From positions 372,001-422,614 of the forward strand of contig OY253690.1 of the NCBI GenBank assembly GCA_958009085.1: a DNA stretch of 50,614 nucleotides, given 5' to 3'. Source of the DNA: Protoeuglena noctilucae (lineage: Eukaryota). Under the pieces are notes generated by a model that did not search any database, was not told where the DNA came from, and saw only the letters and a program-made list of their open reading frames with translations. Position numbers and translations under genes: made by a program. Below are positions 4,303 to 50,614 of the stretch, piece after piece (within the stretch, counting starts at the first letter, position 1; every line of letters begins with the position of its first letter).

Positions 4303-4344
4303 GCAGAAAGAGGCGGCTTTTTTTTCGAGCGTTCCCGCAAAAGC

Positions 4345-4683: not shown

Positions 4684-5176
4684 CACGACGCTCGCCAGCT
4701 ACGAGGACACGGCCGCGTGGCTGACGGCCAACACGACGGGGCTCTCGTGGGACTACATCGAGTCCAGCAACCTCTTCCGCGTGACCAACGCGAGCGGCGC
4801 CCCCGCGACGGTCCAGTGCGACCCGCTCGGCTTCGGGACGGCCGTCGTCGTGCCCGACGGCGCGTCCGTCTCGGGGGAGGTGCAGCCGGTCCTCCAGTGG
4901 CTCCACGGCATCGTGGTCCGATGCAACCTGTTCCGCGGCCTCGCTTCGACGGCCGGCGGCTCCGTCGACGCCGGCGACGTCGCGGGGGTCGTGTCCACGG
5001 ACGGCGAGACGATCCGCTGGGAGAACCTGTCGGACGACTACCAGGTGTGCCGCTCGGACGCCGTCCGCTCGGGCATAGAGGTGCGGCTCCAGGACCTCGA
5101 CGGCAACCTCCTCGTGCCGACCCGCAACGTCACCGTCGTGCTGTCGATCGCCCCGAATTTTACCGGGGTGGAGTAA
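4490..5176 (+). CDS. Probable minor capsid (penton, single jelly-roll) protein, 228 aa
   Basis: All-beta composition. N-terminal FVLQSR...LRVRLAAVLMP, central IVVRCNL, and C-terminal IEVRLQDLDGNLL...VTVVLSI match the pattern I recognise in PLV/virophage minor capsid proteins. Adjacent to the packaging ATPase. Confidence 0.7.
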   Translation: MRRCFVLQSRHSLTSGVLTWATGSLSFPTETLRVRLAAVLMPAVSFQARAPITLTLNGAATSLPDTTLASYEDTAAWLTANTTGLSWDYIESSNLFRVTNASGAPATVQCDPLGFGTAVVVPDGASVSGEVQPVLQWLHGIVVRCNLFRGLASTAGGSVDAGDVAGVVSTDGETIRWENLSDDYQVCRSDAVRSGIEVRLQDLDGNLLVPTRNVTVVLSIAPNFTGVE

Positions 5177-5178
5177 AC

Positions 5179-7008
5179 ATGGCCGACGACACGCTCTGGA
5201 TCTGGCATGACGTCCTCGAGGGGCTCCGCCAGATCCGACCCCGGACGGAGGACGTCGAGCGCCTGCAGGCCGCCGTCGAGCGGGTGCGGGGGATGACGAC
5301 GAGGGAGAGGCTCGACCTCGCCACGCGGCTCTACGTCCACGAGACGGGCTCGCCCGACGTCCACGAGGGCACCGTCGACCTGGTCGACCGCCTCATGCGG
5401 CTCGAGGCCGCCAACCTCATCGCGGAGATCCGCCCCGGCCCCAACCAGGTCACCCTCCCCGCCTACCACGACCGCCGCCTCACCTTCCGCACCTCCCTTC
5501 CGCGCCTCGACTTCCTCGCCGACATCGACCACCTGGTCGCGGAGCGCAAGTCGTCCCCCCCGCCACTCGTCAACCCCCACAAGCGCGCCGCCGAGCGCGA
5601 CGCCGTCAACCCCAACGCCCCCAAGAGGTTCCGCACGCACGAGCCCGAGGAGTCGGAGACCGCCGCCGTCGCGCCCGTCGCGCCCGAGGAGTCCGAGGAG
5701 ACGAGGTCAGTGGCGGTGCGAGCCCCGAAGTGGAAGCGCGACCAGCTCCAGGCGCGCGGCGGGCCGTCGAAGTCGAAGGCTACTTCAAACCACTCGGCGC
5801 TCCGCCTCGCGGACCTCGAGGGGTACGAGCGGTCGGGCGGGCTGTCCCGCGTGACGGAGGAGCCTGCTGTGTCCGAGTCCGTCGGCGAGAGCCCGTCGAC
5901 GACGTCGAAGGCGGCCGGGCCGAGCGAGGCCGGGCCAAGCGAGACGGTCCGCGTCTCCGAGGCGACGAACGCGTACGCCCCCGAACCGGCCTCGCCGGCG
6001 TCTCGGCTGCCCGCGATCACGGAGGAGTCGTCGCGGAGCACGGGCATCGGCGGGGCCGCCCGCACGACGACTGTGTGGGACACCATCAACTCGCTCCGCA
6101 AGCGGGTGGGGCTCCCGCGGATGCGATTCGACGCCGAGATCCAGACCGAGCCCCCCGAGGAGCCCATGCCCGAGCGGCCCCCGTCGCCACACGAGGAAAC
6201 CGCGATGGCCGAGGTGCCGCCGTCGCCGCGGTTCGAGCGCGTGGACAACCCGGAGATCGCGATGTACGAGCTGCCCGACATCGTCCCCAAGGGCACCAAG
6301 ACCGGCCGCGGCGTCCGGAAGGGGAAGTCGAAGCCGACCAAGGTGGTGGTCTTCCGGGACGGCCCGGGCGGGCCGCCCGGACCTCCGGGAGCCGGACCCG
6401 GGACCGCCATCATGGAGCCGGAGGAGCCGGAGGAGCCATCCGGTGCGGGGCCGTCGACGGCGGGGGCAGGGGGCGGCGCACCTCCTCCCGGACCGCCTCC
6501 GGGCGCTGTCGAGGACGACAACGGCGTCCCGGACCACGCCGTGATCCGGCTGGCCGAGCTGACGCAGGGTCCGGGGTACTCCGTGGCTGCAGGAGGGGGC
6601 GGGGAGCCCCCGGGCGGTCCCGGACCCGACGGCGGGGACGTGTACGAGGACGAGCCGATGGGGCCGCCGATGCCGACGGGGACGCACGACGCCGTCGTCG
6701 CCGACCCGCCCACGGCGTCGCAGCCGGCCGCCGAGCCGGAGCCCGACGTCCCCATGGACCCGGAGTTGGGTCAGGAGCCAGCCGCTGGTCCCGTCCCGAA
6801 GGAGGAGCCGGACGACTACGGGCCCATGCCGGTGGACCACGGCTACCTGGAGGAACACGAGACGAAGTGGCCGCCGTTCGACGGGGGCTCCCCCGAGGAC
6901 GACGCAGGCGTCGACCCTGTGTCGGCGTCGGACGCGGACCCCGAGTGGCCGCGGCTACGCCCGCCGATGCACAGGATGCTCGGCATCTGGTCACGATTTA
7001 CTATATAG
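5179..7008 (+). CDS. Hypothetical viral protein, 609 aa: helical N-terminal domain plus long acidic Pro/Glu/Gly-rich disordered tail
   Basis: ATG 2 nt after the penton stop; long ORF; low-complexity PEEP/PGPPG segments. Confidence 0.65.
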   Translation: MADDTLWIWHDVLEGLRQIRPRTEDVERLQAAVERVRGMTTRERLDLATRLYVHETGSPDVHEGTVDLVDRLMRLEAANLIAEIRPGPNQVTLPAYHDRRLTFRTSLPRLDFLADIDHLVAERKSSPPPLVNPHKRAAERDAVNPNAPKRFRTHEPEESETAAVAPVAPEESEETRSVAVRAPKWKRDQLQARGGPSKSKATSNHSALRLADLEGYERSGGLSRVTEEPAVSESVGESPSTTSKAAGPSEAGPSETVRVSEATNAYAPEPASPASRLPAITEESSRSTGIGGAARTTTVWDTINSLRKRVGLPRMRFDAEIQTEPPEEPMPERPPSPHEETAMAEVPPSPRFERVDNPEIAMYELPDIVPKGTKTGRGVRKGKSKPTKVVVFRDGPGGPPGPPGAGPGTAIMEPEEPEEPSGAGPSTAGAGGGAPPPGPPPGAVEDDNGVPDHAVIRLAELTQGPGYSVAAGGGGEPPGGPGPDGGDVYEDEPMGPPMPTGTHDAVVADPPTASQPAAEPEPDVPMDPELGQEPAAGPVPKEEPDDYGPMPVDHGYLEEHETKWPPFDGGSPEDDAGVDPVSASDADPEWPRLRPPMHRMLGIWSRFTI

Positions 7009-7021
7009 GGGGGTAGACATC

Positions 7022-7648
7022 ATGGACGCCCGCACCATGGCCCTCCTCGCGCAGGGCGCCTACCACTCCGACCCCGTCGTCGGCCCGTGGGTCCGTCGGG
7101 GGGGCACGCGGACCATCCACGTCTACCGCAGGGCCGACGACCCGGGCGTCGAGGCGATCGCGTACCGCGGCACGGAGGTGTCGGACCTCGACGACGTCAT
7201 GACGGACCTCGAGCTCATGGCGGCGGGGGGGATGGGGTCGGGCGCCTTCTGGCTGCCCGTCAACGCCGCCCTCAAGGACCGCGTGCAGGAGGCCGTGGCT
7301 TTCGCCCGCACCCGCGTCAGACCCGGCGTCAGGCTGGTCCACGTCGGCCACTCGCTCGGAGGGACGTGCGCCCTCCGCGCCGCCTACGTGGCGGGGGGGA
7401 TCGCCAACGCCTTCGCCCCGTACGTCCCCGTCCGCCTCCCGTGGAACCAGCTCAGGTACCGCCCGGGCATGACGGTGTACGGCAACCGCGTCGACCCCAT
7501 CATGTGGGAGACGATGCTCGACCGCAACTTCCGCCCGGGCTCGGGGTCCGCGAGGTGGAGGCTGATCAGCGAGGCGGGGCAGGGGCCGACCCGGGCGGAC
7601 CAGATGGGGCACGGCCTCGGCCCGTGGACGAGCGGCCGCGCGGCGTGA
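7022..7648 (+). CDS. Class-3-like lipase (alpha/beta hydrolase)
   Basis: Nucleophile motif VGHSLGG (GxSxG) and upstream IAYRGT...DVMTDL motif. Lipases are a known PLV accessory gene. Confidence 0.85.
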   Translation: MDARTMALLAQGAYHSDPVVGPWVRRGGTRTIHVYRRADDPGVEAIAYRGTEVSDLDDVMTDLELMAAGGMGSGAFWLPVNAALKDRVQEAVAFARTRVRPGVRLVHVGHSLGGTCALRAAYVAGGIANAFAPYVPVRLPWNQLRYRPGMTVYGNRVDPIMWETMLDRNFRPGSGSARWRLISEAGQGPTRADQMGHGLGPWTSGRAA

Positions 7649-7679
7649 ACGTCGTGAAAAAATAATCGCCCGCGGGGCA

Positions 7680-8666
7680 ATGACGAAGCTCCGCGTCGCC
7701 GACCTCTTCTGTGGCCTCGGGTCCTTCCACCGCGCCGCCAAGGCGCTCGGCCACGAGGTCGTCTTCGCCGCCGACCTGGACCCGCGGGTCCGAGAGGTGT
7801 ACCGCGAGACGCACGGCCTCGAGCCCGCGGGGGACATCGGGACTGTCGACTGGGGCGCCGTCCCCGACTTCGACGTGCTGTGCGCGGGGCCCCCCTGCCA
7901 GAGCTTCTCCACGGCGGGGCGGCGGGGCGGCCTGGGCGACGCCCGCGGCGACCTCATCCTCAAGATCGCCGACGTCCTGCGCGCGAAGCGGCCGCGGTGG
8001 TTCGTCGTCGAGAACGTCCCCGGCCTCGTCACCATCGACGCGGGCGAGGCCTTCCGCACCGTCCTGCGGACGTACAAGGACGCGGGCTACCGGGTCAAGT
8101 GGGCCATCCTCCGCAGCCACGAGCACGGCCTCCCGCTCTTCCGCAGACGCGTCTTCGTCGTCGGCTCCCGCGACGGCGAGCCGTGGACGCCGCCGCCGCC
8201 GATGCCCTTCGCCTCGCGCCCCACGCTGTCGGAGGCGCTCGGGAGGCCGTTCAAGGCGAGGATCTCGCGGTCGCCCAAGACGACGTACAACTCGACGGCC
8301 ACCGACAAGCGGCAGTGGGCCCGCCTCGCCCTCGAGGACGGCTCGAGCTACTGCCTCACCGCCGACGACGTCCAGAGGCTCATGGGGTGGGGGCCCGACG
8401 AGATCGATTGGGGCCGCTGGAGCTCGAGGGCCGCGAGGATCCGGATGCTGGGCAACAGCATCCCGACGTGCCTCAGCCACGCGGTCCTCGCCGGCCTAGG
8501 CGTAGAGCCGGTCGAGGGCGCGGGCCGCGCGGAGGACGAGGGCGGGGTCGGTCCCGAGCTTGAAGGAGACGGAGCGGTGCCGCTTGGAGAGCTCGAGCTC
8601 GACGGCGGCGGAGTCGGAGCCGTCGAGCAGGAGCTCCGAGCCGATCTGCTCGAGCAGAGCGCCTAG
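7680..8666 (+). CDS. DNA (cytosine-5) methyltransferase, bacterial/viral Dcm-like
   Basis: Motif I DLFCGLG, IV GPPCQSFS, VI ENVPGL, VIII RRRVFVVG, IX LTADDVQRLMG and X MLGNSI, in canonical order. Confidence 0.93.
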   Translation: MTKLRVADLFCGLGSFHRAAKALGHEVVFAADLDPRVREVYRETHGLEPAGDIGTVDWGAVPDFDVLCAGPPCQSFSTAGRRGGLGDARGDLILKIADVLRAKRPRWFVVENVPGLVTIDAGEAFRTVLRTYKDAGYRVKWAILRSHEHGLPLFRRRVFVVGSRDGEPWTPPPPMPFASRPTLSEALGRPFKARISRSPKTTYNSTATDKRQWARLALEDGSSYCLTADDVQRLMGWGPDEIDWGRWSSRAARIRMLGNSIPTCLSHAVLAGLGVEPVEGAGRAEDEGGVGPELEGDGAVPLGELELDGGGVGAVEQELRADLLEQSA

Positions 8667-8777
8667 GTCCACCTTGATCCTCGAGGCGTCGACGACCTCG
8701 ACCACGTCCACCGCCGTGCAGTCGAGCGTCGCCAGGAGCTGGCCGCCGCAGCTGAGAACCACCATCGTTATCTGCAT
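8496..8777 (-). CDS. Small hypothetical viral protein (93 aa)
   Basis: ATG at 8777 with the same upstream CCGCGGGGC context as the MTase; overlaps the non-conserved MTase tail. Confidence 0.5.
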   Translation of the reverse strand: MQITMVVLSCGGQLLATLDCTAVDVVEVVDASRIKVDLGALLEQIGSELLLDGSDSAAVELELSKRHRSVSFKLGTDPALVLRAARALDRLYA

Positions 8778-8859
8778 GCCCCGCGGAAAAAACGGCCCAA
8801 GGGGATCGGCGCCAGGCGTTGAATTAAAAGGGGGAGAGCAACACCAGCAACCAGCGAAG

Positions 8860-9195
8860 ATGATGCGGGAGAAGCGCGAAGACATGGCGCGGGCCCTGTC
8901 CCTGCCCTGTTGGTACCTGGAGTCGCGGCTCTTCCGCGACGGGCTGTTCCCCCAGATCGAGCGGCTCGACGACGCGAGGGACTTCGACGCCATCCTCGAC
9001 CTGGTCGGCGGCGACGAGGACAACGCGCTGGCCCTCCGGTACCACATGGCGGCGACGCAGGGGCTGTACAAGTGGAACATGGCCCAGGAGAGGGTGCTCG
9101 TGCCCTTCAAGCTACGCGATCTCGACGACGCCTACGTCGACCTCTACATCGCCATGTCCCGCACCACGGCGGGGGGGACGGTCGTCCTCGTGTGA
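8860..9195 (+). CDS. Small hypothetical viral protein (111 aa)
   Basis: ATG after an AT-rich intergenic islet; coding-like codon usage. Confidence 0.55.
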   Translation: MMREKREDMARALSLPCWYLESRLFRDGLFPQIERLDDARDFDAILDLVGGDEDNALALRYHMAATQGLYKWNMAQERVLVPFKLRDLDDAYVDLYIAMSRTTAGGTVVLV

Positions 9196-9497
9196 GCAGG
9201 TGACAATTCGACTATTTTTTCGCAGGAAGCCCACAAGGATCTGGGAACCCGGGGAGTCGGCGAGAATCGCCAGGGTCCAGGCCGCGCGGGCGAGAAACAA
9301 CCTTGCACCAGGTCCATGTACCCGGATTAATTTTATCCGGGACCCGCGCGCCGGTCTCGAAGCCCGAGAAGCCCCGGCGCTGGATGTCTGACCAGGTTCT
9401 AGAACATGGGTAAATACCCTAGCCCTGGCGAAGCGCATAAAAGTTCGCGCGCGCGTGGTTTCGCGGACACTTTCTGCGCTTCCGACTCCGATCGAAG

Positions 9498-10424: not shown

Positions 10425-10580
10425 CTACCAGCGCAAGCTGGTGACCCACCCCCGGGTCGTTAATCTGGGATACGCCCGCCCGGCGTGTAACAAGTGGGTA
10501 GCCACTACCAGCGGAGGCTGGTGACCCCACCCTGGGTCGTTAATCTGGGATACGCCTGCCCGGCGTGTAACAAGTGGGCA
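10425..10580. repeat. Tandem duplication, ~80-bp period, 2 copies
   Basis: GGGTCGTTAATCTGGGATACGCC...CGGCGTGTAACAAGTGGG occurs twice (units start ~10426 and ~10506). Confidence 0.9.
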
Positions 10581-20622: not shown

Positions 20623-22555
20623 ATGCACATCCTCTTCCTCGCGTGGTGCATCCTTGTATGGACGCTGAGGTGACTTCCTCACGTCGGGACCCTGGCCGGA
20701 AAGCGTGCGTGGGTCCGGCAACGAGAGGATACGCGTATTTGCAGGACTGGAGCCGCGCAGGAGAAAAAAGGAGAGATCCACACACTCATCGCGGTGGCTG
20801 GAGAGAAGTATGAGCTCCACTTCAAGCCCAACGAGCTGCTAGATGATGCCTTCGTGCGCTTTCTCCGCGACACGCCGTGGCCCTTCTCCCGACATCTGCT
20901 CGAGTCGCTCGCTCGGACAGCGTTTCGTCAGGTGGGCTCGTGCGCGGAACAGCTCGGTGGCTGGGGCCCACGGATGTGGGGAATCAACGCGCTGCCGCCG
21001 GATGCAGGCCGTGGAGGAGCGGAGCGTCCCCCGCGTCCGTCTCGTGATCAGGCATCCTCGTGCGCCGGGCGTAGAGTGCCTCCTGGACTCCTACTCCGGA
21101 GATGACTTCCAAGAAACGCTGCGCGGAATGCTGGCCCAGGTGGGGGCACGCGGGTCGCATCTGGGGCAGCTGGGGCGATGTGGGGAGCGGCTCGACGTTC
21201 CAGACCTCGCCTTCGCCGCGCCCAGTGCGGGATGGAAGCTGGGGACGGCGAAGGCCTCGGGACAGCGACGCACTGGCGCCTGGTGTCGGTCCTGTCGATG
21301 GACGGGGGGGAAGACCTCAACCTCAGCTCGCCAGATCCGGGAAAGTTCCGAGTGTGGGAGGGCGAGCGCCTGCGCGACAAGCTCCCGCCCTTCCTCGCCG
21401 ACGCGGGCGTCGCGGATGCCAGTCACACAGGCGCGCTCCTGCGTCGCGCAGGTGGGTGCTGAGCTCAAGAAACATCTCAACGCCAGAGGACATCACTAGC
21501 CAGGCATCTTGTGGTATCGCTGGCTTCGACCCACGCCCGCAGAGGAGAGGCTGAGGGAGACCCTGCTGGGCAGTGACGTGGCACCCGCCCTGTGGAGCAT
21601 GCCACCCCAGGCGACGGCGGCCGGCTACGAGCCGGACCAGGCATTCGCCCTCCGCCGCGGCGGCAGCGCACCGGCGTGGGCGGTGGACTACGGCGTCGTC
21701 CAGATTCCGAGCACTGGCTTCTGCAACAACCACTACTATCACGTCGTCGAGTGCTTCCTGGGACTCTTCGCCTGGTCCCGGGAGCACCGCGTGCCGGGCA
21801 GGGAGGTGGTGCAGGTGGTCGTCGTACACCCTGCCATGCGCATGCCGACCCACGATTTCTTCGCCTCAGCGTTGTTCCCTGAGGCAAGCATTGCCCCTGA
21901 GACCCCGGCCAGCCTGTCCGTTGCGGTGGTGGCTGCGAAGGCTGGTCTGGGAGACAACATCCCCCAGCGACCCATCGACACCAACCGAGCACTGGAGCAC
22001 TCCGCGGTCGTCGAGTCCTTTTGGTTCCCGGAGTTCCTGGCCGCCGTGTACGCTGCTGCTGGCGCGTCCCCCCGGCCCCGGCCCGCGAGCCCCGGCGAGG
22101 TGCGCGCCGTGTACGTGCGGCGCGCCATGAGCCTGCGGGAGCTGGGCGACGAGGACCTGGCGCGGCTGGCGTCGGTGATGCTGGAGGAGCACGGGGTGGC
22201 GCTTGAGGTGGTGCGGTTCGAGGCCATGACGGTGGAGGAGCAGGTGCGGCTGTCGGCCAGGGTCGATCTCATGGTGGGCGTGCACGGCAACGGCCTGACC
22301 AACCTGCTGTGGATGCCGCCGCACGGGGCGGTGCTGGAGCTGTTTGCGGCCGACTGGCACTTCTACGATTATCAGATGCTGAGCGAGATCAGCGGGCACC
22401 TGTACAGCGGGGTGCAGGAGGGCAACCCGCATCCGTACCGGCGGGGGTCGCAGCGAGAGTCCGCGTACGGCTTCCCAGTCTTTGCCCCAGGCGCGATCGA
22501 CTGGGTCCTCGTTAGCTCGGAGCTGAGGTTCCTGCTAAGCTGGATGATGGGCTAG
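20623..22555 (+). CDS. Glycosyltransferase family 61 (DUF563-type) protein with signal peptide (spliced)
   Basis: MHILFLAWCILVWTL signal; NHYYHVVECF; EQVRLSARVDLMVGVHGNGLTNLLWMPPHGAVLEL. Confidence 0.8.
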
Positions 22556-28409: not shown

Positions 28410-31803
<3,394 letters not shown>

Positions 31804-36469: not shown

Positions 36470-37880
36470 TGCCCCCTCCCGGCGCCGAGGCGGTCGACTC
36501 GCCCGGAGTCAAAGCGGGGCCGGGCTCGGCCGGCCCGTCATCTCCTGCGCAGAACCAGCAGCGTCGAAGGTCGGAAGGGCACACTGACCATTGGTGAAAC
36601 ATTGAAAGGTCGCACTACGCTGCGCGGCCCATGCTCAACTTGTTTGAACCCTAGCTGAAGCCAGGAGCGATGGAGGGACCTGTGTGATGGCCTCCAGGTC
36701 GACTTCGCTTGGCGCACTGCGGGTGAGGGGATCGCCCTTTTAAAATCGGAGGGGTTACCCACTTCCGGCTTGGCACGGAGACAGAGGTGGCCCTCACCGC
36801 GTGCTCGCGTACTCCGATATCGCGTGCGCGTGGATGGACATGCCCCTCCGCGGGGCCGACGGGCCTGTCTCCGTCATCGGGGTCTCCCAGCGCTCCCGGC
36901 GGGAGCGTGAGTCACTCCGCAGCCGCTGGAAGTGCGAGAGGTCCACGAAAGCCCGTCAAAGGCTTTGGGTTGAAGAAAGGAGGACCTCTGGCAAGAGGGT
37001 CTCCCCCAATTCCCGCCTCGCCGCGCTCTCCTGCCGGGCAGCGCTCCTGGGACGCCCATGCTGCTTGTTGCGTCCTTGCCGTTAGATCAACCGGGTTTGC
37101 CGGCCGTTAGCGTTAGCGTTCATAAGTTAGCAAGTTGTCGAGGCGGTGGTGGTGGTAGCTTTAGAGCGGGTTTCCTTAGTATTTCTCTAGTGCTCGCAGG
37201 TACGTCAACAGGGAGGAGGCGGTGGTACTAGTGGATCCACGACCGGTGAGGACTTCCCCTGCGAAAACGTGGCAGCCTCTGCAATCGCGATTCCTCTCGA
37301 GTGCCTCTGAGGTGCAGCGAGTACCGGGACGCTGTCAGGCGCTCTGCCTGGCCGTCCCGCGTGCCCGAGGGTGGACCGCCGTTCGTACCCGCCGACGTGC
37401 GGCCCGTGCGCTTTCCGTGTCGCTTGCTGCTTGACAGAGCGCTCGGGGGCCAGCTTTCAGGTCACCTGGGTCTTGGAATGGGGAGTCGAGTTTGGTTGCC
37501 CCGCGCCGCTCCTAGGACCGTCTTCTCCCCCCTTTGGTAGACACAGCGGGTGGTGTTTTTCCAAAGTCATGTGCTGGCAGCACAGACGTGCCCGGAGATC
37601 GCACCGGGAGGTCGCCGCGCCCTTTTCTCCCCCAAACATTTGGCGCCCAGGCCCGCCGCGCATGACGACTTATGGGCGTGGATCGCTACGTGCGTCGATC
37701 GCAATCGCGTTCACTGGCACATGCACTAGCTCTTTTGCTGCGTTGCCGGGTTCGGCGGGGCGCGCGCGCTGGCACACTCGCGCCATGGAGGGAGGGAGCC
37801 CCGCGCGCCCACCCGATGTCGTCTCTCTTCCCTGCCGCGCAGGCAAGTCGAGGATTTCTCTGCGGCTCTCTCGCGGAGGC

Positions 37881-40800
37881 ATGGCGGCCAGGCGACGCCC
37901 GCCGCGGCGGGCCTCGCCGTCCGTCATGGGGTGGGGCCTCCTGCTGCTGGCCCTGGCCGTGGCGCTCGCGCTCTTCGTCCCCGCCAGCTCTTGGGTGACT
38001 GTGGACAGCGGTCACACCATCACGCTGCACGGGGACACGAGCGTCGGGCCCAAGCTGGCGGCCGGCAAGTACGACCTCACGGTCATGGGCGACTCGAGGG
38101 TCGGGGACATCGACAAGGCGCGTTGCGGTCGCGTCTGCTGCGCGTGCTGCCCGTCCGCGTGACATCCCTGCATTCTCTTGCTACTGATACCTCCCCGGGC
38201 TCCCCGCCCTCCGCAGGTGGACCCGTACTCTTCCAACTACAACCTCGACGTCCAAGGCGCTGTCTCGGCCGCCCAGGTCATCTTCCGCGAGCCCACGGGG
38301 CTCGGGAACGGGACCACGGGCACCACGAGGTGAGAATCTGCCTCGGTGGTGACGGCCAGGCCTCGCGCCGACCGCGGCCGTGCAAGGACCCCCGCGTTCC
38401 TCCCCTGCAGCCGGGACGTCCTGGTGCTGGAGAGCGCCGGGGTCAAGGACGGTTCCAACAACATCACGTCGCACATGGTGCGCTTCAAGCGGCAGACGGC
38501 CACGGTCAACTCCACGGGGACGACCTGGTCATCGCCGCAGACGCCCTTCCAGCTGACCCTGTACGTCAGCGGCGCGTCGTCCGGCAACACAGGCGAGCGA
38601 CAGCCGCGAGCAACCGGGGGCTATCTCGTCGGCTCTCTGCTCTGTCGCTGAACGGTCGTCGCCTTCCGCGATCCGCAGCGGGTCTCCTGCAAGCCGACAA
38701 CAGCGCGTCGTTCACCATCCAGTCGCTGGACAACGCGGCGACCAGCGCCTCGCTGGTGCTCACTGGCCGGGACGTGAACAACAATGTGGTGTCCGTCTAC
38801 ACCATGCGAAACCAGGTTTGGGGCCAGCGCTGCCGCGCACATCCACGACGGCGCATGCCAACGTGGGGTCGCGAACGCTGCACTGAGACCAGCCCACGCC
38901 CGCGTTCGCAGCAAGCCGTCCTGAGCATCTCGGCCACGGACAAGAGCGACTCTACGACGCCCAAGACGTCGTACGACTCGTTCTCCATCCAGGACCAGCG
39001 CATGGACCTGTCCGGGGCCAACCCGAACGTCCTGCCCAACCTCAAGGCAAGCAAGCCGGGTTAACGTGGGCATGCCCGCGCCCGACGGAACTCCCTATGA
39101 CTGTCAGCGGATGCCGAACCGCCCATCCACTCCCGCAGACGACGTGGCTGGCCGACCCTCGGATGCGCTTGCAAATCACAACGGGCGGGGACACGGTCCT
39201 GCAAGTGCGTGGCGGGCAGACGCAGTCTCTCGGGTCGGGCGTCTTCCAGGCTGGCATGGCCCGGGCCGAGGTGGCCCTCTACCAGGGCAACTCCATCCTG
39301 AGCATCGTGAACGAGCCGCTTGGCAACACGGCGGGTGCATACACGGACACGCTCGCCATTCGCAAGACGGTCGTGGATGGGAGCGGCAACAAGACGTTGT
39401 ACAACCTCGTGCAGATGCTGGACGCCGAGATCCGGCTCGTCCCGCAGCTCAGCACGGGCATGGTGCGCGTGGGCTACCAAGTGGGCACGATCACCGCCCA
39501 GAACAACGAGCCCAACTTCTACGGCGCCAACTTCCAGGCGAGCTGGTGGCGGGGGCTTCACGGCGGGTGCGAGCACCAGCACGGGCGCATGTGCTGTCAT
39601 GGCACCGACGCTCTTAGGCCGGCCCTCGCAGGTCGGCGACATGAACGTGCACTTCTACAACTCCAACGTGACGCCGCACCAGGCGCTCTTCCCCGGGGCC
39701 GCTTCCTCCGTGCCGCTCCCTGGCACGGAGATCAACGTCCACGGCTACGCGGAGAGCAGCACGTACGCCGACTACAGCCTGTTCCTCAGCTCGAGGAAGC
39801 TCATCAAGGCAGACACGCCGTCCCTGTACGTCGGATCGGGCAGCATCGGCAACGCCCCCACCCAGTCGTCCGCACAGCAGACGGCCAATGCCCTCTCGCC
39901 CCAGGTGCGCGCTTCAGCCATGCCTCCAGCGCCGCGACGGGCTGCTGAAGCCGGCTGCCACCGGAAGCACGCTGGCCCTTCCTGCCTCGCAGGATACATG
40001 GGACGGCGGGTGGACGGGCGGTGCCGTCATGGTCAACGGCACGGGCCTGACGCAAACGGCCGTGGACTTCCCCCTCATGCTGAGCACGTCGCATACCACG
40101 GCCAACCTGGCCAACGGCGGCAAGGCCGGCGTCAAGATCATGGGCGCGTACAAGCTCGACGTGGGGGGCATCTCGCTCTCGGACACGGCCGACGGCCGCG
40201 CCCCGGCCAACGACAAGAGGTGGGGCAGACGTCGCCTGCCGGCGAGGGACGGGAGTCACGTGTATAACATTCGCCGCAGCCCTCGTGCGCGTGGGACCTG
40301 CCACTGCCCCTTGATGCAGGTCGACGCGGCGCCTCACGAGCGTCGGATCGCTCCGCCTCTCTGCCTTTGACGCCAACACCAACTACGGGGTCTTCCCCGC
40401 GTACGGCACCGGCCTGGGCCTGCAGGCCACGTCGGAGGTTTACGTGGACGGGAACGAGAAGAAGGGCCAGGCGCGCCTGCGCGTTGGCAACGCCGTCATC
40501 CACGATGCGTGGTCGGACGCCACCCCCTACACCACGCCGGGTGAGGGGCGCGGGGAGCTGGGGTGTAGCGGTCTGCCACTGAGCTAGTGGCGGGAAGCGA
40601 GAACGCCGACGCCTTGCCCCGCGCAGTGATGGACGGCGTGCATGTGACGTCCACGACCAACCTCGACGCGGCGCTGCTGATGGCCGTCTCGTCCTACATT
40701 TCCGGGACGGAGAAGGCGGCGCCCGGCGCCCCGGCCACCACCGATGCCCTGAACCCGGCCCTGACCTCGACGGCCCACTCGGGCCTGATCGTCATCCGCT

Positions 40801-43800
40801 CCGAGCTCGAGGTCCGCATCGACGAGGCGTCGCTGCTGCGCGTTGGCTCCCCCGGGGCGTCCGTCCGCACGACGGCGTCGACGCAGTCGGTGGCCGCTGA
40901 CAGCGAGCAGTTGCCTCTGCGCATGGACGCCCCTCTCGGTTTGGAGGTCGGGTACCGGCCGGGGTACGAGAACCGCGGCAAGACTCGCAAGAGGTGAGCC
41001 CGTCTCCGCTTGTCCCGGCGATCTGAGGCGATAGGCCGGCCGCATACTGGTCAACTGTTCATTGCAACACGACGCGCAGGCCAATCTACACGTCCAACGA
41101 CCCCAATTACCTGGGGAGCAGCGGGCGGCCGACGGTGTTTATGCGGGACCTCGAGATGGACGGGTGCTCCATTCCCGAGGCGTCCTCGGCCGCGCTGCCG
41201 AACGACTCGTACACGGCCGCCATCTACGCCGCGCGCTCGTCGGGCGAGTGCGTCACCCGCATCGGCATCATGACCCCGCCAACGTCGGACCTGTCGGCTT
41301 TCGCCCAGGCGATCGGCAAGTACACCACGGTGCGTGGCACGTGCGCTGAGCGTCAATTTACGCCTCTGCGCTTCGCTCTTCGCCATCCTGCCGAGGCCGA
41401 CCCCAGTCGCTGAGTGCTGGCATCCCTGAAACCTCCCGCAGGGGTCTCAGGAGGCCAAGGAGCTCTACGTGTCGAGCGACAACTACGTGGACTTTGACCG
41501 CCGGAGTCGCGTCAAGATTGGCGGCATCTTCTTCGACGGCAAGGGCATGCAGGCCACGGACCCCTTCAACGCCTTCAGCGAGTCCTCGACGGGCCTGCCG
41601 ACGTCAGGGACGTGGTCTAGCCTGGCCGGCACGTCGGGCGACGCCAAGAACACCATCCGGGGCGACTCGGGCCTCATCCTCAACGGCGGGCGCCAGTCGG
41701 GCCCCGTCCAAGTGGTGGGCGGCACGAGCCGCGTGAATGGCACGGCCGGCGGCAACGTGACGGTCCTTACGGGGGGCTCCGGGGCCACGGGCTGGACGGG
41801 CGACTCGGGCGTCCTCACGCTGGCGTCGGCGGCGGGCGGCACAACGGGCAACTCGGGCAACGTGAAGCTCCAGTCCGGGACCATCACGGGCGGAGCGTCC
41901 AACACGTCGGGGACCGTGACGGTTTCGACGGGCGCCGCGACGGTGGGACGCTCGGGAGACGTGAAAGTGGCCACGGGCACCACGCAGTCCACCAGCACGT
42001 CGGGCAACGTGACGCTCGCCACGGGCAACGCGGCCGGCGCTGGGGCCGGGGACATCCGCGTCACGGTGAGCGAATAAGCGGTTTCACCAGGCCGGTTACG
42101 GCAGGAGAGGAACCGCAGACATACTGCAAACAAGCAATCTTCCACTGTCCCCACGCAGGGTGGCTCAAGCGGTGGCGCAGTGGGCGGCAATGTTCAGATC
42201 ACGGCTGGGCAGTCGACGGGCGCAACGGGCACGATCCCCGGCGGTGCCGTGACCGTCACGGGTGGGGCGGCCAGTGCGGGTGTCGGCGGCAGCGTGACGG
42301 TGGCTGGCGGGGCGTCCACGGGTGCGGTCGGCGGAGGAGTCACCATCGTGTCTGGCGCGACGTCCGCGGCCTCCAGCCCCAACCGCTCGGGAGACGTATC
42401 CATCCTGACAGCCGACTCGGCGGCCAGCGCCTCCACGGCCACCGGCACCATCACGGTGCGCACGGGCAACTCTGCCACCGGGACCGCCGGGAACCTGGTC
42501 CTCGCGACGGGCAGTGGCCTGTCCACGGGGGCGTCCGTGTCCCTGACGGCGGGGACAGCGACGCAGACCGCCAGCGCCCCGACGTCAACGCCTCAGGTAC
42601 GTTCCTGGCTGCAGCTGCTCGCCTTTGCCGCCACGGTACTCCCTGCACGCGCTGCCAGCGCCTTTTCTTCATGTCGCGACCGCTCGCAATTCGCGCGCAG
42701 GGCGGCAACGTCAACATCGCCGCGGGGAGCGCCTTCGCGGCTGGCAACAGCGGCGTGGGCGGGGGCGTCAGCGTCACGGGTGGCACGGGCTTCACCACGG
42801 GCGGCAACGTCAGCATCACGGGCGGCCGCGTGGTCACGTCCGCCGACACCAACAACGGCACCACGTACACCTACACGGACAACACCTATCGTGACGGAGG
42901 GTCGATCGTGCTGACGTCCGGCGCCGGAGCCACGCGCAACTCGGGCAACGTGGTCATCTCCACCGCCGCCTCCGGGGCCACGGGTGGCGCGGGCCAGGTC
43001 CGCATCACCACCGGCGACTCGAGCGCCACGACCTCCTGCTCCTCCGCTCCATGTCAGAACGAGGTGACAGCATGGCGTCGACCCTGGGGAGCCCATGCTG
43101 CGCTATGTATTGTTAAGTCATCATCGAGGGCCACCTGTTGCAATTGCAGGGTGCCATCGTCATCGCGGCGGGCAAGTCCTCGGTGACGACCGGCCCCGCC
43201 GTGAGCGTTACCGCCGGGGGGGCGACTGCCACGAACCAGCGCGGTGGCAACGTGGCCATTACTGCCGGCGTGGGGCAGGCGGGGCCGGGCGGTCACGTCG
43301 TCATCACGGGCGGACAGGGCCAGGGCTCGAACACCGGGTTTGGGAACGGCGGGGACGTGATCCTGTCGGGAGGCACAGCGCAGGCGACGGGCGCCACGGG
43401 CGGGAACGTCACCATCGCGTCCGGCAAGCCCCTCTCGTCGACGTCATCCAACAGCGGTGCCATCACCCTCACCACGCCGTCGCCGACCAGCCAAGGTGTC
43501 TCAGGAGACATCGGAGTCACGACTGGGGACGCCTCTTCTGCATCCGGCAACGTCACAGTGCAGACAGGGGCGGTGAGCGTGGGGCCCAATTCGTCGGGGA
43601 ACATCTCCTTAATGACTGGCAAAACGACCAATCAAAATGCTGGAGGCATCAGCCTCAAGACTGGCTCGAGCACGCTGACCGGGGGGGCTGTGAGCATCCA
43701 GACTGGCAGTGGACAACAGGGAGGAGACTTAACAGCCACCACCGGCAGCGCAACGACAACGCGCGGAGGCAGCATGACCCTAACGACCGGTTCAGGGGTT

Positions 43801-46800
43801 ACGGGCGGGTCCGTAAGAGTGTCGACCGGCAGCGGGGCGGCGGGCGCCGGCGGGGCGTTCACGCTGACCGCAGGGAGCTCGACCAGCGCAGCCGGCGGGG
43901 GTCTGACCGCAACGCTTGGGTCAGGCAGCACGCTGGGCGGCGGGATGACGGTGACAGCAGGAAGCGCGACGATGGGGACGGGCGGGGCGTTCTCGCTGAC
44001 GGCAGGGTCGGGGGTGACGGGCGGGGCGGTGAGCCTGGAGGCGGGCAGCGGGACGACGGGGGTCGGCGGGGCGTTCTCGCTGCTGGCAGGGAGCTCCACG
44101 TCGGCGACGGGCGGGGCGTTCACGGTGGCGTCCGGGTCCGGGGTGACGGGCGGGGCGCTGAGCGTGTCGACCGGCAGCGCGACGACGGGGACGGGCGGGG
44201 CGTTCTCGCTGACGGCAGGGTCGGGGGTGACGGGCGGGGCGGTGAGCCTGGAGGCGGGCAGCGGGACGACGGGGGTCGGCGGGGCGTTCTCGCTGCTGGC
44301 AGGGAGCTCCACGTCGGCGACGGGCGGGGCGTTCACGGTGGCGTCCGGGTCCGGGGTGACGGGCGGGGCGCTGAGCCTGGAGTCGGGCAGCGCGACGACG
44401 GGGGCCGGCGGGGCGTTCACGCTGTCGACGGGCAGCTCCAAGTCGGCGACGGGCGGGGCGTTCTCGGCCACGGCGGGCGCGGGCAGGACGGGCGGCGGGC
44501 TGAGCCTGGCGGCCGGGTCCGGGTCTAGCGGCGCGGGCGGGTCTATGACGCTGACGACGGGGTCGGGGACGACGGCGGGCGGCGGCCTGGCGATCGTGTT
44601 CGGCACGGCGACGACGGGGACGGGCGGGGCGTTCTCGCTGACGGCAGGGTCGGGGGTGACGGGCGGGGCGGTGAGCCTGGAGGCGGGCAGCGGGACGACG
44701 GGGGTCGGCGGGGCGTTCTCGCTGCTGGCAGGGAGCTCCACGTCGGCGACGGGCGGGGCGTTCACGGTGGCGTCCGGGTCCGGGGTGACGGGCGGGGCGC
44801 TGAGCGTGTCGACCGGCAGCGCGACGACGGGGACGGGCGGGGCGTTCTCGCTGACGGCAGGGTCGGGGGTGACGGGCGGGGCGGTGAGCCTGGAGTCGGG
44901 CAGCGCGACGACGGGGGCCGGCGGGGCGTTCTCGCTGACGGCAGGGTCGGGGGTGACGGGCGGGGCGGTGAGCCTGGAGGCGGGCAGCGGGACGACGGGG
45001 GTCGGCGGGGCGTTCTCGCTGCTGGCAGGGAGCTCCACGTCGGCGACGGGCGGGGCGTTCACGGTGGCGTCCGGGTCCGGGGTGACGGGCGGGGCGCTGA
45101 GCGTGTCGACCGGCAGCGCGACGACGGGGACGGGCGGGGCGTTCTCGCTGACGGCAGGGTCGGGGGTGACGGGCGGGGCGGTGAGCCTGGAGTCGGGCAG
45201 CGCGACGACGGGGGCCGGCGGGGCGTTCACGCTGTCGACGGGCAGCTCCAAGTCGGCGACGGGCGGGGCGTTCTCGGCCACGGCGGGCGCGGGCAGGACG
45301 GGCGGCGGGCTGAGCCTGGCGGCCGGGTCCGGGTCTAGCGGCGCGGGCGGGTCTATGACGCTGACGACGGGGTCGGGGACGACGGCGGGCGGCGGCCTGG
45401 CGATCGTGTTCGGCACGGCGACGACGGGGACGGGCGGGGCGTTCTCGCTGACGGCAGGGTCGGGGGTGACGGGCGGGGCGGTGAGCCTGGAGGCGGGCAG
45501 CGGGACGACGGGGGTCGGCGGGGCGTTCTCGCTGCTGGCAGGGAGCTCCACGTCGGCGACGGGCGGGGCGTTCACGGTGGCGTCCGGGTCCGGGGTGACG
45601 GGCGGGGCGCTGAGCGTGTCGACCGGCAGCGCGACGACGGGGACGGGCGGGGCGTTCTCGCTGACGGCAGGGTCGGGGGTGACGGGCGGGGCGGTGAGCC
45701 TGGAGTCGGGCAGCGCGACGACGGGGGCCGGCGGGGCGTTCACGCTGTCGACGGGCAGCTCCAAGTCGGCGACGGGCGGGGCGTTCTCGGCCACGGCGGG
45801 CGCGGGCAGGACGGGCGGCGGGCTGAGCCTGGCGGCCGGGTCCGGGTCTAGCGGCGCGGGCGGGTCTATGACGCTGACGACGGGGTCGGGGACGACGGCG
45901 GGCGGCGGCCTGGCGATCGTGTTCGGCACGGCGACGACGGGGACGGGCGGGGCGTTCTCGCTGACGGCAGGGTCGGGGGTGACGGGCGGGGCGGTGAGCC
46001 TGGAGGCGGGCAGCGGGACGACGGGGGTCGGCGGGGCGTTCTCGCTGCTGGCAGGGAGCTCCACGTCGGCGACGGGCGGGGCGTTCACGGTGGCGTCCGG
46101 GTCCGGGGTGACGGGCGGGGCGGTGAGCCTGGAGTCGGGCAGCGCGACGACGGGGGCCGGCGGGGCGTTCTCGCTGACGGCAGGGTCGGGGGTGACGGGC
46201 GGGGCGGTGAGCCTGGAGGCGGGCAGCGGGACGACGGGGGTCGGCGGGGCGTTCTCGCTGCTGGCAGGGAGCTCCACGTCGGCGACGGGCGGGGCGTTCA
46301 CGGTGGCGTCCGGGTCCGGGGTGACGGGCGGGGCGCTGAGCGTGTCGACCGGCAGCGCGACGACGGGGACGGGCGGGGCGTTCTCGCTGACGGCAGGGTC
46401 GGGGGTGACGGGCGGGGCGGTGAGCCTGGAGTCGGGCAGCGCGACGACGGGGGCCGGCGGGGCGTTCACGCTGTCGACGGGCAGCTCCAAGTCGGCGACG
46501 GGCGGGGCGTTCTCGGCCACGGCGGGCGCGGGCAGGACGGGCGGCGGGCTGAGCCTGGCGGCCGGGTCCGGGTCTAGCGGCGCGGGCGGGTCTATGACGC
46601 TGACGACGGGGTCGGGGACGACGGCGGGCGGCGGCCTGGCGATCGTGTTCGGCACGGCGACGACGGGGACGGGCGGGGCGTTCTCGCTGACGGCAGGGTC
46701 GGGGGTGACGGGCGGGGCGGTGAGCCTGGAGGCGGGCAGCGGGACGACGGGGGTCGGCGGGGCGTTCTCGCTGCTGGCAGGGAGCTCCACGTCGGCGACG

Positions 46801-49800
46801 GGCGGGGCGTTCACGGTGGCGTCCGGGTCCGGGGTGACGGGCGGGGCGCTGAGCGTGTCGACCGGCAGCGCGACGACGGGGACGGGCGGGGCGTTCTCGC
46901 TGACGGCAGGGTCGGGGGTGACGGGCGGGGCGGTGAGCCTGGAGTCGGGCAGCGCGACGACGGGGGCCGGCGGGGCGTTCACGCTGTCGACGGGCAGCTC
47001 CAAGTCGGCGACGGGCGGGGCGTTCTCGGCCACGGCGGGCGCGGGCAGGACGGGCGGCGGGCTGAGCCTGGCGGCCGGGTCCGGGTCTAGCGGCGCGGGC
47101 GGGTCTATGACGCTGACGACGGGGTCGGGGACGACGGCGGGCGGCGGCCTGGCGATCGTGTTCGGCACGGCGACGACGGGGACGGGCGGGGCGTTCTCGC
47201 TGACGGCAGGGTCGGGGGTGACGGGCGGGGCGGTGAGCCTGGAGGCGGGCAGCGGGACGACGGGGGTCGGCGGGGCGTTCTCGCTGCTGGCAGGGAGCTC
47301 CACGTCGGCGACGGGCGGGGCGTTCACGGTGGCGTCCGGGTCCGGGGTGACGGGCGGGGCGCTGAGCGTGTCGACCGGCAGCGCGACGACGGGGACGGGC
47401 GGGGCGTTCTCGCTGACGGCAGGGTCGGGGGTGACGGGCGGGGCGGTGAGCCTGGAGTCGGGCAGCGCGACGACGGGGGCCGGCGGGGCGTTCACGCTGT
47501 CGACGGGCAGCTCCAAGTCGGCGACGGGCGGGGCGTTCTCGGCCACGGCGGGCGCGGGCAGGACGGGCGGCGGGCTGAGCCTGGCGGCCGGGTCCGGGTC
47601 TAGCGGCGCGGGCGGGTCTATGACGCTGACGACGGGGTCGGGGACGACGGCGGGCGGCGGCCTGGCGATCGTGTTCGGCACGGCGACGACGGGGACGGGC
47701 GGGGCGTTCTCGCTGACGGCAGGGTCGGGGGTGACGGGCGGGGCGGTGAGCCTGGAGGCGGGCAGCGGGACGACGGGGGTCGGCGGGGCGTTCTCGCTGC
47801 TGGCAGGGAGCTCCACGTCGGCGACGGGCGGGGCGTTCACGGTGGCGTCCGGGTCCGGGGTGACGGGCGGGGCGCTGAGCGTGTCGACCGGCAGCGCGAC
47901 GACGGGGACGGGCGGGGCGTTCTCGCTGACGGCAGGGTCGGGGGTGACGGGCGGGGCGGTGAGCCTGGAGTCGGGCAGCGCGACGACGGGGGCCGGCGGG
48001 GCGTTCACGCTGTCGACGGGCAGCTCCAAGTCGGCGACGGGCGGGGCGTTCTCGGCCACGGCGGGCGCGGGCAGGACGGGCGGCGGGCTGAGCCTGGCGG
48101 CCGGGTCCGGGTCTAGCGGCGCGGGCGGGTCTATGACGCTGACGACGGGGTCGGGGACGACGGCGGGCGGCGGCCTGGCGATCGTGTTCGGCACGGCGAC
48201 GACGGGGACGGGCGGGGCGTTCTCGCTGACGGCAGGGTCGGGGGTGACGGGCGGGGCGGTGAGCCTGGAGGCGGGCAGCGGGACGACGGGGGTCGGCGGG
48301 GCGTTCTCGCTGCTGGCAGGGAGCTCCACGTCGGCGACGGGCGGGGCGTTCACGGTGGCGTCCGGGTCCGGGGTGACGGGCGGGGCGCTGAGCCTGGAGT
48401 CGGGCAGCGCGACGACGGGGACGGGCGGGGCGTTCTCGCTGACGGCAGGGTCGGGGGTGACGGGCGGGGCGGTGAGCCTGGAGTCGGGCAGCGCGACGAC
48501 GGGGGCCGGCGGGGCGTTCACGCTGTCGACGGGCAGCTCCAAGTCGGCGACGGGCGGGGCGTTCTCGGCCACGGCGGGCGCGGGCAGGACGGGCGGCGGG
48601 CTGAGCCTGGCGGCCGGGTCCGGGTCTAGCGGCGCGGGCGGGTCTATGACGCTGACGACGGGGTCGGGGACGACGGCGGGCGGCGGCCTGGCGATCGTGT
48701 TCGGCACGGCGACGACGGGGACGGGCGGGGCGTTCTCGCTGACGGCAGGGTCGGGGGTGACGGGCGGGGCGGTGAGCCTGGAGGCGGGCAGCGGGACGAC
48801 GGGGGTCGGCGGGGCGTTCTCGCTGCTGGCAGGGAGCTCCACGTCGGCGACGGGCGGGGCGTTCACGGTGGCGTCCGGGTCCGGGGTGACGGGCGGGGCG
48901 CTGAGCGTGTCGACTGGGAGCGCGACGACGGGGACGGGCGGGGCGCTGAGCGTGTCGACCGGCAGCGCGACGACGGGGACGGGCGGGGCGTTCTCGCTGA
49001 CGGCAGGGTCGGGGGTGACGGGCGGGGCGGTGAGCCTGGAGTCGGGCAGCGCGACGACGGGGGCCGGCGGGGCGTTCTCGCTGCTGGCGGGGAGCTCCAC
49101 GTCGGCGACGGGCGGGGCGTTCACGGTGGCGTCCGGGTCCGGGGTGACGGGCGGGGCGCTGAGCCTGGAGACGGGCAGCGCGACGACGGGGGCCGGCGGG
49201 GCGTTCTCGCTGCTGGCAGGGAGCTCCACGTCGGCGACGGGCGGGGCGTTCACGGTGGCGTCCGGGTCCGGGGTGACGGGCGGGGCGCTGAGCGTGTCGA
49301 CTGGGAGCGCGACGACGGGGGCCGGTGGTGCGATCACGCTGTCAACGGGCAGCTCGCTGAGTGCTGCTGGTGGGAGTATGTCTGTGACACTGGGCACGGG
49401 GGTGATTGGAGGCTCCTTTTCGCTGACGCCTGGCACCGGGACGACCACCAATGGGTACGTGAATGTTGGTCCACGCCTTAGGGTTTACGATACCTCGGGA
49501 GCTGCGCTCGGGGCTGGGTCGATGGTCTACATCCCGGTGCGTTTCTGCGTTGCGGCTTGCATATTGTCATGTGTCGCGTGTCAGAGAAATTAAACCAAAG
49601 CCATCGTAACTGATTTGCAGATCAAGGCTGTCTATGGCGTCAGCGTGTCCTTGACAGCAACAGCAACGTGGTCTTCCACCGGAGTGCTGCAACAATCCGT
49701 TGCTCTTTCAAATATAGTAGCCGGGGACACGCACTTTGCTATCTGCACGTATGCAAGTAAGTCAATCTTTGATTTGGCACTGCTTATCATGGCTTGACTT

Positions 49801-50136
49801 AGAAATTCTCCCTGAAAGTGTTTTTTTTTTTTTGCGCAGCCACCGTTACAATCAACGGAAACGCTTACAGTGCACAGCCCTCGTGCTTCATCAACGTGAG
49901 TCATGCGGCGCATTCAATGGGTGCATGCTTACATCATCTACTGGGCGACGAGCGCGGAGCGAGGAGCACTTTTTTTTTGTTTGTCGCAGGGAACGACGCT
50001 CTATATCCAGTTCTACGGGTATAACAACGGGACCACGTCGCCCACCATCAGCGTGACGGCGGCCACCCCCAACCTGTACGTGCTTGTGGTTGCCACGGAT
50101 GGGACAGGCCTTACGAGCACCGTGACAGCGGCATAA
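37881..50136 (+). CDS. Giant (~3,500 aa, estimated) secreted/surface Gly-Ser-Thr beta-repeat fibre-like protein, ~17 introns
   Basis: Signal/anchor WGLLLLALAVALALFVPA; beta-rich exons; 6.4-kb exon 43150-49536 made of GGxxxxxxGxxxx(xx) units; C-terminal beta-domain exons ending TSTVTAA* at 50136. Confidence 0.8.
43960..49330 (+). repeat. Coding higher-order tandem repeat: 39-45-bp subunits nested in a 513-bp (171-aa) unit
   Basis: Marker CGATCGTGTTC (AIVFG) at 44591, 45401, 45914, 46640, 47153, 47666, 48179 and 48692; five of the seven spacings are exactly 513 bp. Confidence 0.95.
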
Positions 50137-50313: not shown

Positions 50314-50614
50314 AGGTTTAGGGTAAGGGTTGGTTAGGTAGGGTTAGTTTTAGGCAGGTCAGTTTTTTTAGGGTTAGGTTAGGAGGGCAGGGTTAGGGTT
50401 AGGGTCAGGGTCAGGTAGGGTTAGGGTTAGGGTTAGGTAGGTTTAGGTTTTGGGGTAGGGTCAGGGTTAGGGTTAGGGTTAGGGTTAGGGTTAGGGTTAG
50501 GGTTAGGGTTAGGGTTAGGGTTAGGGTTAGGGTTAGGGTTAGGGTTAGGGTTAGGGTTAGGGTTAGGGTTAGGGTTAGGGTTAGGGTTAGGGTTAGGGTT
50601 AGGGTTAGGGTAGG
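50314..50614 (+). repeat. Telomere: degenerate proximal repeats, then (TTAGGG)n
   Basis: Variant units (TCAGGG, TTAGGT, TTTAGGG) at 50314-50466, then about 24 perfect TTAGGG copies from 50467 to the window end. Confidence 0.98.

Follow-up and report, generated by a model that had tools for sequence, protein, structure and literature searches.

A single-copy gene next to a telomere of a green alga encodes a giant repeat protein that probably forms a triple beta-helix surface fibre

We analysed a window of 50,614 nucleotides, the whole stretch of Protoeuglena noctilucae DNA at positions 372,001 to 422,614 of contig OY253690.1 (assembly GCA_958009085.1), in which the last gene before the telomere (37881-50136, plus strand) encodes a giant repeat protein. 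In a model built from the coordinates, a single gene of 18 coding exons and 10,692 nt is translated into 3,563 residues with zero internal stops. The gene carries a long series of repeats, is expressed, is spliced at 14 introns joined in RNA, occurs in a single copy, and is conserved across green lineages. Its product, a chain of about 322 kDa without sugars, is probably secreted, and the best explanation of the evidence is that three such chains intertwine into a triple beta-helix that serves as a surface fibre, a reading we hold to be probable.

Protein architecture

The protein starts with a predicted signal peptide (residues 1-37; 37881-37991), recognised by hydropathy, with an Arg-rich start, a hydrophobic core and a probable cleavage site before W38. 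The initial annotation had called the protein secreted, and the hydropathy profile agrees: across the whole protein the only 19-residue windows above 1.6 lie in this N-terminal segment. The head that follows (residues 38-931; 37992-41693, exons 1-12) is supported by RNA-joined introns and by similarity to a relative, P0004; it is conserved and, as had been supposed, non-repetitive, but measures about 900 residues rather than the roughly 1,000 first estimated. The shaft comprises diverged repeats (41694-43956, exon 12 to the start of exon 15), recognised by their motif and by a trimer model of exon 12; a homogenised array with a 12-repeat higher-order unit (43957-49341, within exon 15); and a last set of diverged repeats (49342-49452) ending at residue 3423. 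The C-terminal region of about 140 residues (49453-50136, the end of exon 15 plus exons 16-18) contains two cysteines, appears beta-rich from its sequence, and has neither a membrane segment nor a glycosylphosphatidylinositol-like tail. All these features lie on the plus strand.

More than 150 repeats had been predicted; 149 units fit the strict form GG-x6-G, and 164 are counted with a looser start, each 13-15 residues long and built of Gly, Ser and Thr. Over the full protein the looser motif matches 166 times, whereas 50 shuffles average 16.9 matches (maximum 24). Spacing between repeats is 13 (46 times), 14 (12 times) or 15 residues (88 times), never 12. The consensus is G-G-x-h-x-h-x-[TAS]-G-x4-6, with fixed hydrophobic residues (h) at positions 4 and 6, invariant glycines, and mostly Ser or Thr at positions 5 and 7. 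Over the 2,492 residues of the shaft there are 839 Ser/Thr and just 13 Pro. The core higher-order repeat is 12 units, or 171 residues and 513 bp. Four copies of 513 nt match one another exactly and a fifth has five differences, which suggests recent expansion of an array whose exact copy number depends on the assembly.

Predicted structure of the shaft

Three copies of the exon 12 piece (208 residues), modelled together, scored 0.86, against 0.00 for the best of three controls; the runs agreed in at least 98% of contacts, with a predicted local distance difference test (pLDDT) value of at least 73. In the calibration of the mark by which such models were judged, made with two copies, 21 of 30 proteins known as pairs of one chain passed and none of 23 single chains; among eukaryotic proteins, 17 of 29 pairs passed and none of 30 single chains. 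The best contacts join a repeat to the next repeat of another chain (residues 125 to 141/142, 108 to 127, 140 to 157, and 143 to 161), accompanied by like-to-like contacts (127-127, 143-143) and by contacts from repeat position 4 to position 8 (125-129, 141-145, 106-110, 159-163). Read from the contact list rather than from coordinates, this register, together with the trimer score, very probably describes a triple beta-helix of intertwined chains in which every repeat supplies one strand. With a rise of about 0.48 nm for each of the 164 repeats, the stiff shaft would be about 80 nm long. Further support for a trimer comes from the company the repeat keeps, since it sits beside trimer-forming modules elsewhere (S74 in the repeat protein P0001, and 5 of 38 viral open reading frames).

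Modelled alone with 13 aligned sequences, the exon 12 piece gave an open spiral chain (pLDDT 57) with no sheet of its own. When this monomer was compared with 48,161 solved chains, only three reached a Z-score of at least 2, all of them phage-type fibres or spikes with weak scores: the hyaluronate lyases 2c3f (Z 3.2, root-mean-square deviation (rmsd) 5.6, 151 aligned) and 4ufq (Z 2.9, rmsd 4.0, 119 aligned), both of the phage tail-fibre kind, and the tailspike 24qj (Z 2.3, rmsd 6.1, 112 aligned). We take 2c3f to be HylP1. The title of a cited reference describes HylP1 as a triple-stranded beta-helix.

Several results weigh against a three-chain helix. Among eukaryotic pairs without an older solved relative, just one of seven reached the mark, so the pass of exon 12 may reflect likeness to solved phage helices. 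The trimer model covers 208 of 3,563 residues, three copies was the sole number tried, and residues 1-68 of the piece are not confidently placed. Structural Z-scores are weak (best 3.2); Foldseek found nothing in the PDB and no viral model at E 0.001 (best E 0.058), although families unlisted in such fold searches are not thereby ruled out. No S74 chaperone was found in the genome, though one is present in the giant alveolate proteins that are candidates for TLP-12, a triple beta-helix glycofibril from pond water, according to the available part of the report (10.1101/2025.09.30.679562). The genome search for PF13884 (Peptidase_S74) gave 0 matches, and its control rang in 2 of 14; S74 was likewise absent from the end of exon 15 and from exon 18, in scans of separate exon pieces that could miss a domain split by introns. 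Finally, the core modelled from a single sequence (pLDDT 42) is a one-chain, two-sided helix.

This last model defines the main structural rival, a one-chain, two-sided beta-solenoid of two repeats per turn, resembling SufB/D or RTX rolls and about 40 nm long, that would act as a monomeric rod or adhesin. Its strands are regular, and it matches SufB/D at Z 12.8-14.5 (at best Z 14.5, rmsd 2.7, 193 aligned). Set against this are its pLDDT of 42, the opening of the alignment-based chain without a sheet of its own, and the contrast between the trimer score and its controls, so we consider a solenoid unlikely. Both arrangements had been offered in the initial annotation as forms of an ordered beta-fibre, and of the two the triple beta-helix is now favoured.

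The core is low in complexity, with Gly, Thr, Ser and Ala accounting for 78% of it, and both monomer models have low pLDDT. These features could instead indicate a disordered, mucin-like Gly/Ser/Thr tract, an outcome named beforehand as one that would speak against an ordered fibre. The fixed hydrophobic positions 4 and 6, the invariant glycines, the scarcity of Pro and the confident trimer speak against it, and we regard disorder as most improbable.

Gene structure and expression

The coding exons, all on the plus strand, are exons 1-6 (37881-38117, 38217-38329, 38411-38592, 38679-38815, 38912-39046 and 39139-39537) and exons 7-12 (39632-39904, 39993-40219, 40320-40540, 40627-40993, 41080-41329 and 41442-42065), whose introns are joined in RNA; exons 13-15 (42159-42596, 42701-43063 and 43150-49536, the last of 6,387 nt); and exons 16-18 (49621-49756, 49840-49895 and 49990-50136), which are supported by an open joined frame and canonical splice sites. 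The 17 coding introns are 81-112 nt long and all end in YGCAG. Four of the 17, located within 38118-39631 and each joined in RNA, have GC donors, a high proportion for a eukaryote. The last three introns (49537-49989) have a GC content of 0.36-0.53, against 0.56-0.73 elsewhere, which may reflect drift close to the telomere or a 3' end of more recent date.

Four of 14 listed sequencing runs were compared with the locus stretch 37200-43940, outside which the last three introns lie. RNA contigs from runs X2 and X3, of one marine metatranscriptome study, join all 14 coding introns of the stretch at their predicted lengths, and run X5, from a second study, joins three of the same 14. Run X9 is of a kind not on record and was taken as DNA in view of its one unspliced contig, which crosses the stretch, joins 0 introns and serves as a control. 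The X2 contig (4,882 nt) proceeds from a 5' untranslated exon through exons 1-14 into the first 700 nt of exon 15, to 43856 within the repeats, and no letter differences are listed between the genome and the compared RNA contigs. The 3' part of the untranslated exon (37200-37245) is joined in X2 and X3 contigs to 37843 across a GT-AG intron of 597 nt (37246-37842); one X2 record has 170 letters ahead of the joint, which places the start of the exon at about 37076. Runs X11-X14, labelled as this species, contain next to none of the words of the gene and X6 a small share, and they provide no evidence on expression in culture.

One spliced, expressed giant gene had been claimed, and the 18 exons with 14 of 14 introns joined in the compared stretch bear the claim out; several separate genes are ruled out by the single contig that covers exons 1-15. 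A Pro-rich antisense frame of 1,950 codons (43632-49484, minus strand) was also considered as a true gene and rejected: it mirrors the repeat exon, and both splice sites and relatives back the plus strand. It is taken as a by-product of codon use.

Relatives of the head

An exon 12 query returned 16 matches among 1.84 billion representatives, ten on the non-repeat part and six on repeats only. The best relative, P0004, shows 42% identity over 907 head residues (E=0) and is collinear from signal peptide to repeats. Two of the ten clusters looked up have named organisms, Pedinophyceae sp. YPF-701 and Chlorokybus atmophyticus, which gives the family members in Chlorophyta as well as Streptophyta; two intron-bearing metagenome loci contain further relatives. 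Identity in the head between the window's protein and its relatives is 30-44% over overlaps of 575-854 residues. In all five proteins examined, the similarity sets in as soon as a hydrophobic stretch and a site of small residues have been passed, a pattern that points to removal of the signal and to conservation of the N-terminus of the mature protein. All relatives are incomplete, and the comparison therefore ends short of the tail.

The head was not found in viral contigs, in prokaryote genomes, or in the viral and bacterial loci fetched; as far as these scans go, it appears to be found only in eukaryotes. An Atlas search with the head reached a best score of 0.80, a lead only, and a word-index homologue search was insensitive, with 3 matches in one instance and its own query missed in another, and is silent on distribution. 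Pfam gave no match on the 10 gene pieces scanned or on head relatives, PHROGs none on five gene pieces or on six head-bearing relatives, and PDB sequence searches nothing meaningful for scanned pieces or relatives; exons 16 and 18, each alone, also lacked a meaningful match. No description of the family was found in the literature, in which subscription papers were thinly covered. As the initial annotation suspected, the family is apparently undescribed, and its distribution suggests that it is old and green-algal.

The relatives also bear on an ice-binding or ice-nucleating surface, another proposed role, for which the Ser/Thr ladders of the shaft (329 [ST]-x-[ST] and 61 T-x-T patterns, with positions 5 and 7 mostly Ser/Thr) would be suited. 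In two relatives, P0023 and P0030, however, Asp/Glu account for 10-14% of the span that bears the motif, and Ser/Thr for only 16-19%. Because these repeats are acidic and less rich in Ser/Thr, ice binding is unlikely as the role of the family; glycans, moreover, would probably cover the ladders, and we give this alternative very little credence.

The repeat in viruses, bacteria and other protists

A degenerate DNA pattern for two repeats located 61 viral and 62 prokaryote loci, and runs of at least five repeats occur in open reading frames at 43 of the former and 11 of the latter, several of them near-duplicates. The 38 viral frames scanned were 36 of the 43 (seven duplicates or fragments being dropped) plus two with shorter runs that were picked for their ends. 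Five of the 38 have S74, collagen, Mtd_N or T7 fibre families, which we presume to be trimeric; PHROG tail or virion families are found on ten, and 24 are without any PHROG match. In the viral frames (L027-L087) the head is missing and motif matches number 61 at most. Searches of viral contigs with single repeat proteins and of phages with tblastn found nothing; the two-repeat DNA pattern alone worked.

Algal and viral repeat profiles agree, even at the unconstrained positions 3, 5 and 7. Shared ancestry appears likely from this agreement, although short Gly-rich repeats can converge. The likeness to viral fibres noticed at the outset is real at the level of the repeat, which also occurs in phage fibre-like proteins. 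A viral or bacterial origin is not shown for the gene as a whole, the head having been seen in eukaryotic sequences only.

An Atlas search groups the repeat with clusters that have been attributed to Oomycota, Chlorophyta and Bacillariophyta (score 0.98, of low recognition value). Long open reading frames with the same repeat were also seen in Patescibacteria-type genomes (Saccharimonadia, Dojkabacteria, Peregrinibacteria; L089-L091, L097, L116, L125, L142), some with Kelch, CBM_4_9 or SH3 domains. In P0001 the S74 domain lies in the middle of the protein (residues 260-321) with repeats on both sides, rather than in its usual C-terminal place. A repeat without a Pfam entry is thus spread across phages, some bacteria and several protist groups.

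Proposed assembly and role

The chain would enter the secretory pathway through its signal peptide, and three identical chains would intertwine into a triple-stranded beta-helix. Each repeat would form one short strand, and each triangular rung three strands, one per chain; the second hydrophobic residue would meet its mates on the threefold axis, the first would pack on position 8 of the next chain, and the Gly-rich linkers would turn the corners. O-glycans probably decorate the Ser/Thr ladders on the outside, and the small tail is likely to nucleate folding of the trimer or to make up the tip. The head of about 900 residues probably docks the fibre into a larger structure; since the fibre has no membrane anchor of its own, the head would hold it in a surface structure.

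A structural filament of the cell surface, belonging either to thin flagellar hairs or to the coat, is the probable role. A flagellar hair in particular is tentative, yet it is our best single guess because the groups of both named relatives have haired cilia, described for Pedinophyceae and for Chlorokybus zoospores in the available part of one source (PMC6492006). A glycofibril that belongs to the coat or is released follows closely in likelihood. The same triple beta-helix might be released or only loosely held, as a fibril of the coat, mucilage or extrusomes that is independent of flagella, and this alternative, which we judge possible but doubtful, draws on the absence of a membrane anchor after the signal peptide, the abundance of Ser/Thr in the shaft, the similar repeats in Oomycota, Chlorophyta and Bacillariophyta clusters, the Mamiellales ejectosomes, which are described as made of fibrils, and the finding of TLP-12-type fibrils free in water, as the accessible text relates (10.1101/2025.09.30.679562). 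A head kept at 30-44% identity, however, suggests docking in a defined assembly.

The flagellar hair faces difficulties of its own. Two named relatives offer thin support for a link to haired flagella. A shaft of 80 nm is far shorter than a whole flagellar hair, so it could be only part of one. In published descriptions the hair scales of prasinophytes consist of rows of globular subunits, and scales are described, in the part of the source available, as mostly carbohydrate (PMC4494055). A more detailed scenario can be offered as conjecture, and is rather unlikely to hold in every part: the protein would be a thin flagellar-hair filament of early-branching green algae. A domesticated phage tail-fibre repeat would have acquired a signal peptide and a eukaryotic head for docking ahead of the split of Chlorophyta and Streptophyta; the product would fold into a triple beta-helix without S74, and expansion of the 513-bp unit would tune its length, like a molecular ruler.

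Most known triple beta-helix fibres come from phages. In 2025 TLP-12, a eukaryotic glycofibril of this type, was reported, its host and role not known according to the available text (10.1101/2025.09.30.679562). The gene described here would add a second repeat type for such a fibre; its genome is complete, it is expressed, its head is conserved, and relatives occur in both green lineages. It is a concrete candidate for the filaments of algal hairs or coats, gives a sequence to match against unassigned fibrils in environmental cryo-electron microscopy, and allows the reuse of a phage-type module by eukaryotes to be tested. It may represent an old component, so far without a name, from which algal surface hairs or coats are built.

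Chromosome end, host and copy number

The window ends in a TTAGGG telomere (50318-50614, plus strand), degenerate at first and perfect from 50467, at the end of the contig. The first TTAGGG, at 50318, is 182 bases from the stop codon, and the fibre gene is indeed the last before the telomere. Two contigs, C1 and C2, have TTAGGG arrays at both ends. The genome comprises 26.3 Mb in 27 contigs, two of which contain organelle-type small-subunit ribosomal RNA. It encodes IFT57, and an intron-bearing HSP70 lies at 28900-31800 (plus strand), with ends that resemble what we take to be the nucleus-encoded plastid stromal form of green plants. From HSP70 and IFT57, the host is read as a flagellate green alga.

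Four protein queries match significantly at this locus only, among searches that score best candidates only; they reveal no second copy in the genome and no paralogs at other chromosome ends, where a check had been proposed. Repeat runs were found at none of six other candidate loci, and a one-repeat DNA pattern gave 158 matches against 241 for its control, which is noise. Being single-copy, the gene does not belong to a subtelomeric family of variable surface proteins, and its telomeric position, once thought meaningful, seems incidental.

These data weigh on the idea of a recognition or defence fibre, a virus decoy or an adhesin for prey or partners, recently acquired from a virus and diversified at the end of the chromosome. 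Its place before the telomere, its rapidly homogenised array, the presence of the repeat in viral frames and a virus-like element 29 kb upstream would all be in keeping with such an origin. Yet the gene is single-copy and has 18 introns, counting that of the untranslated region; relatives occur in Pedinophyceae and Chlorokybus, the head is absent from the viral and prokaryote scans, and genome and compared RNA contigs do not differ. We therefore consider a defence fibre improbable, and a structural triple beta-helix filament remains the preferred explanation.

The virus-like element is a block of long open frames in window 1-9200 and the adjoining upstream locus (L026, G000:C23:362001-372000), which looks like an integrated Polinton-like virus. 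It shows an rve integrase (weak, E 0.005), an AAA_30 helicase-like domain (E 2e-5), a Pox_A32 ATPase (3400-4695, minus strand; weak, E 0.0015), a C5 DNA methylase (7566-8663, plus strand; E 1.5e-49), and a fibre-like frame running from L026 position 7454 to window position 2883. Near its edge is an 80-bp tandem duplication (10425-10578, 91% alike). A Glycosyltransferase 61 domain (21500-22552, plus strand; E 3.8e-12) is encoded 15 kb upstream of the fibre gene, with no link shown.

Comparison with known systems

Among green-algal surface proteins, the gralins, or scale-associated proteins, of Scherffelia dubia are tied to flagellar scales and hairs, and a bacterial origin has been suggested for them (PMC4494055). 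They have a short Arg/Ala-rich N-terminus before a hydrophobic stretch, much as our protein has an Arg-rich start. In the portion of the source available, however, gralins are type-2 membrane proteins of 748-1,074 residues with Ig-like or ConA-like parts, and no such repeat is described; the signal of our protein looks cleaved, and the separation from SAP98, SAP116 and SAP126 follows these descriptions only. The Chlamydomonas mastigoneme protein MST1 has the role proposed for our protein, that of a glycoprotein filament outside the cell on the flagellum of a green alga, but it is hydroxyproline-rich as far as the accessible text goes (PMC11015965, PMC10602792), whereas our shaft has 13 Pro in 2,492 residues, is predicted to be a beta-helix, and is accordingly not of the Chlamydomonas type. 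A Phytophthora loricrin-like protein was rejected as a counterpart: as partly described, it has 308 residues and no signal peptide.

Phage triple beta-helix fibres and spikes (2c3f, 4ufq, 24qj) bear a weak likeness to the predicted fold (best Z 3.2), and in uncharacterised viral frames the repeat has a matching profile and co-occurs with S74, collagen and tail-fibre families. The algal protein differs in its spliced nuclear gene, its signal peptide, its 164 repeats and its want of a known enzyme site, and it is not a virus-encoded part of a virion.

A parallel in kind is TLP-12, as presented in the available part of its report (10.1101/2025.09.30.679562). Both are giant Gly/Ser-rich repeat chains of protists with outward Ser/Thr as likely glycan sites; a dense O-glycan shell of the TLP-12 type is possible for the alga, given 839 Ser/Thr in its shaft. 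Three intertwined chains of triangular section are likewise common to both, in the alga by prediction only, on 208 residues. The TLP-12 repeat, however, is a 12-residue GSxxSx7 with two strands and a rise of 9.6 Å, whereas the algal repeat has 13-15 residues and, in the model, one strand. TLP-12 candidates are alveolate and end in a C-terminal ICA/S74 chaperone, which has a trimerisation-related role; the algal protein is green, has a conserved 900-residue head, and no S74 was found for it. The algal fibre is one that works like TLP-12 but departs from it in both repeat and chaperone.

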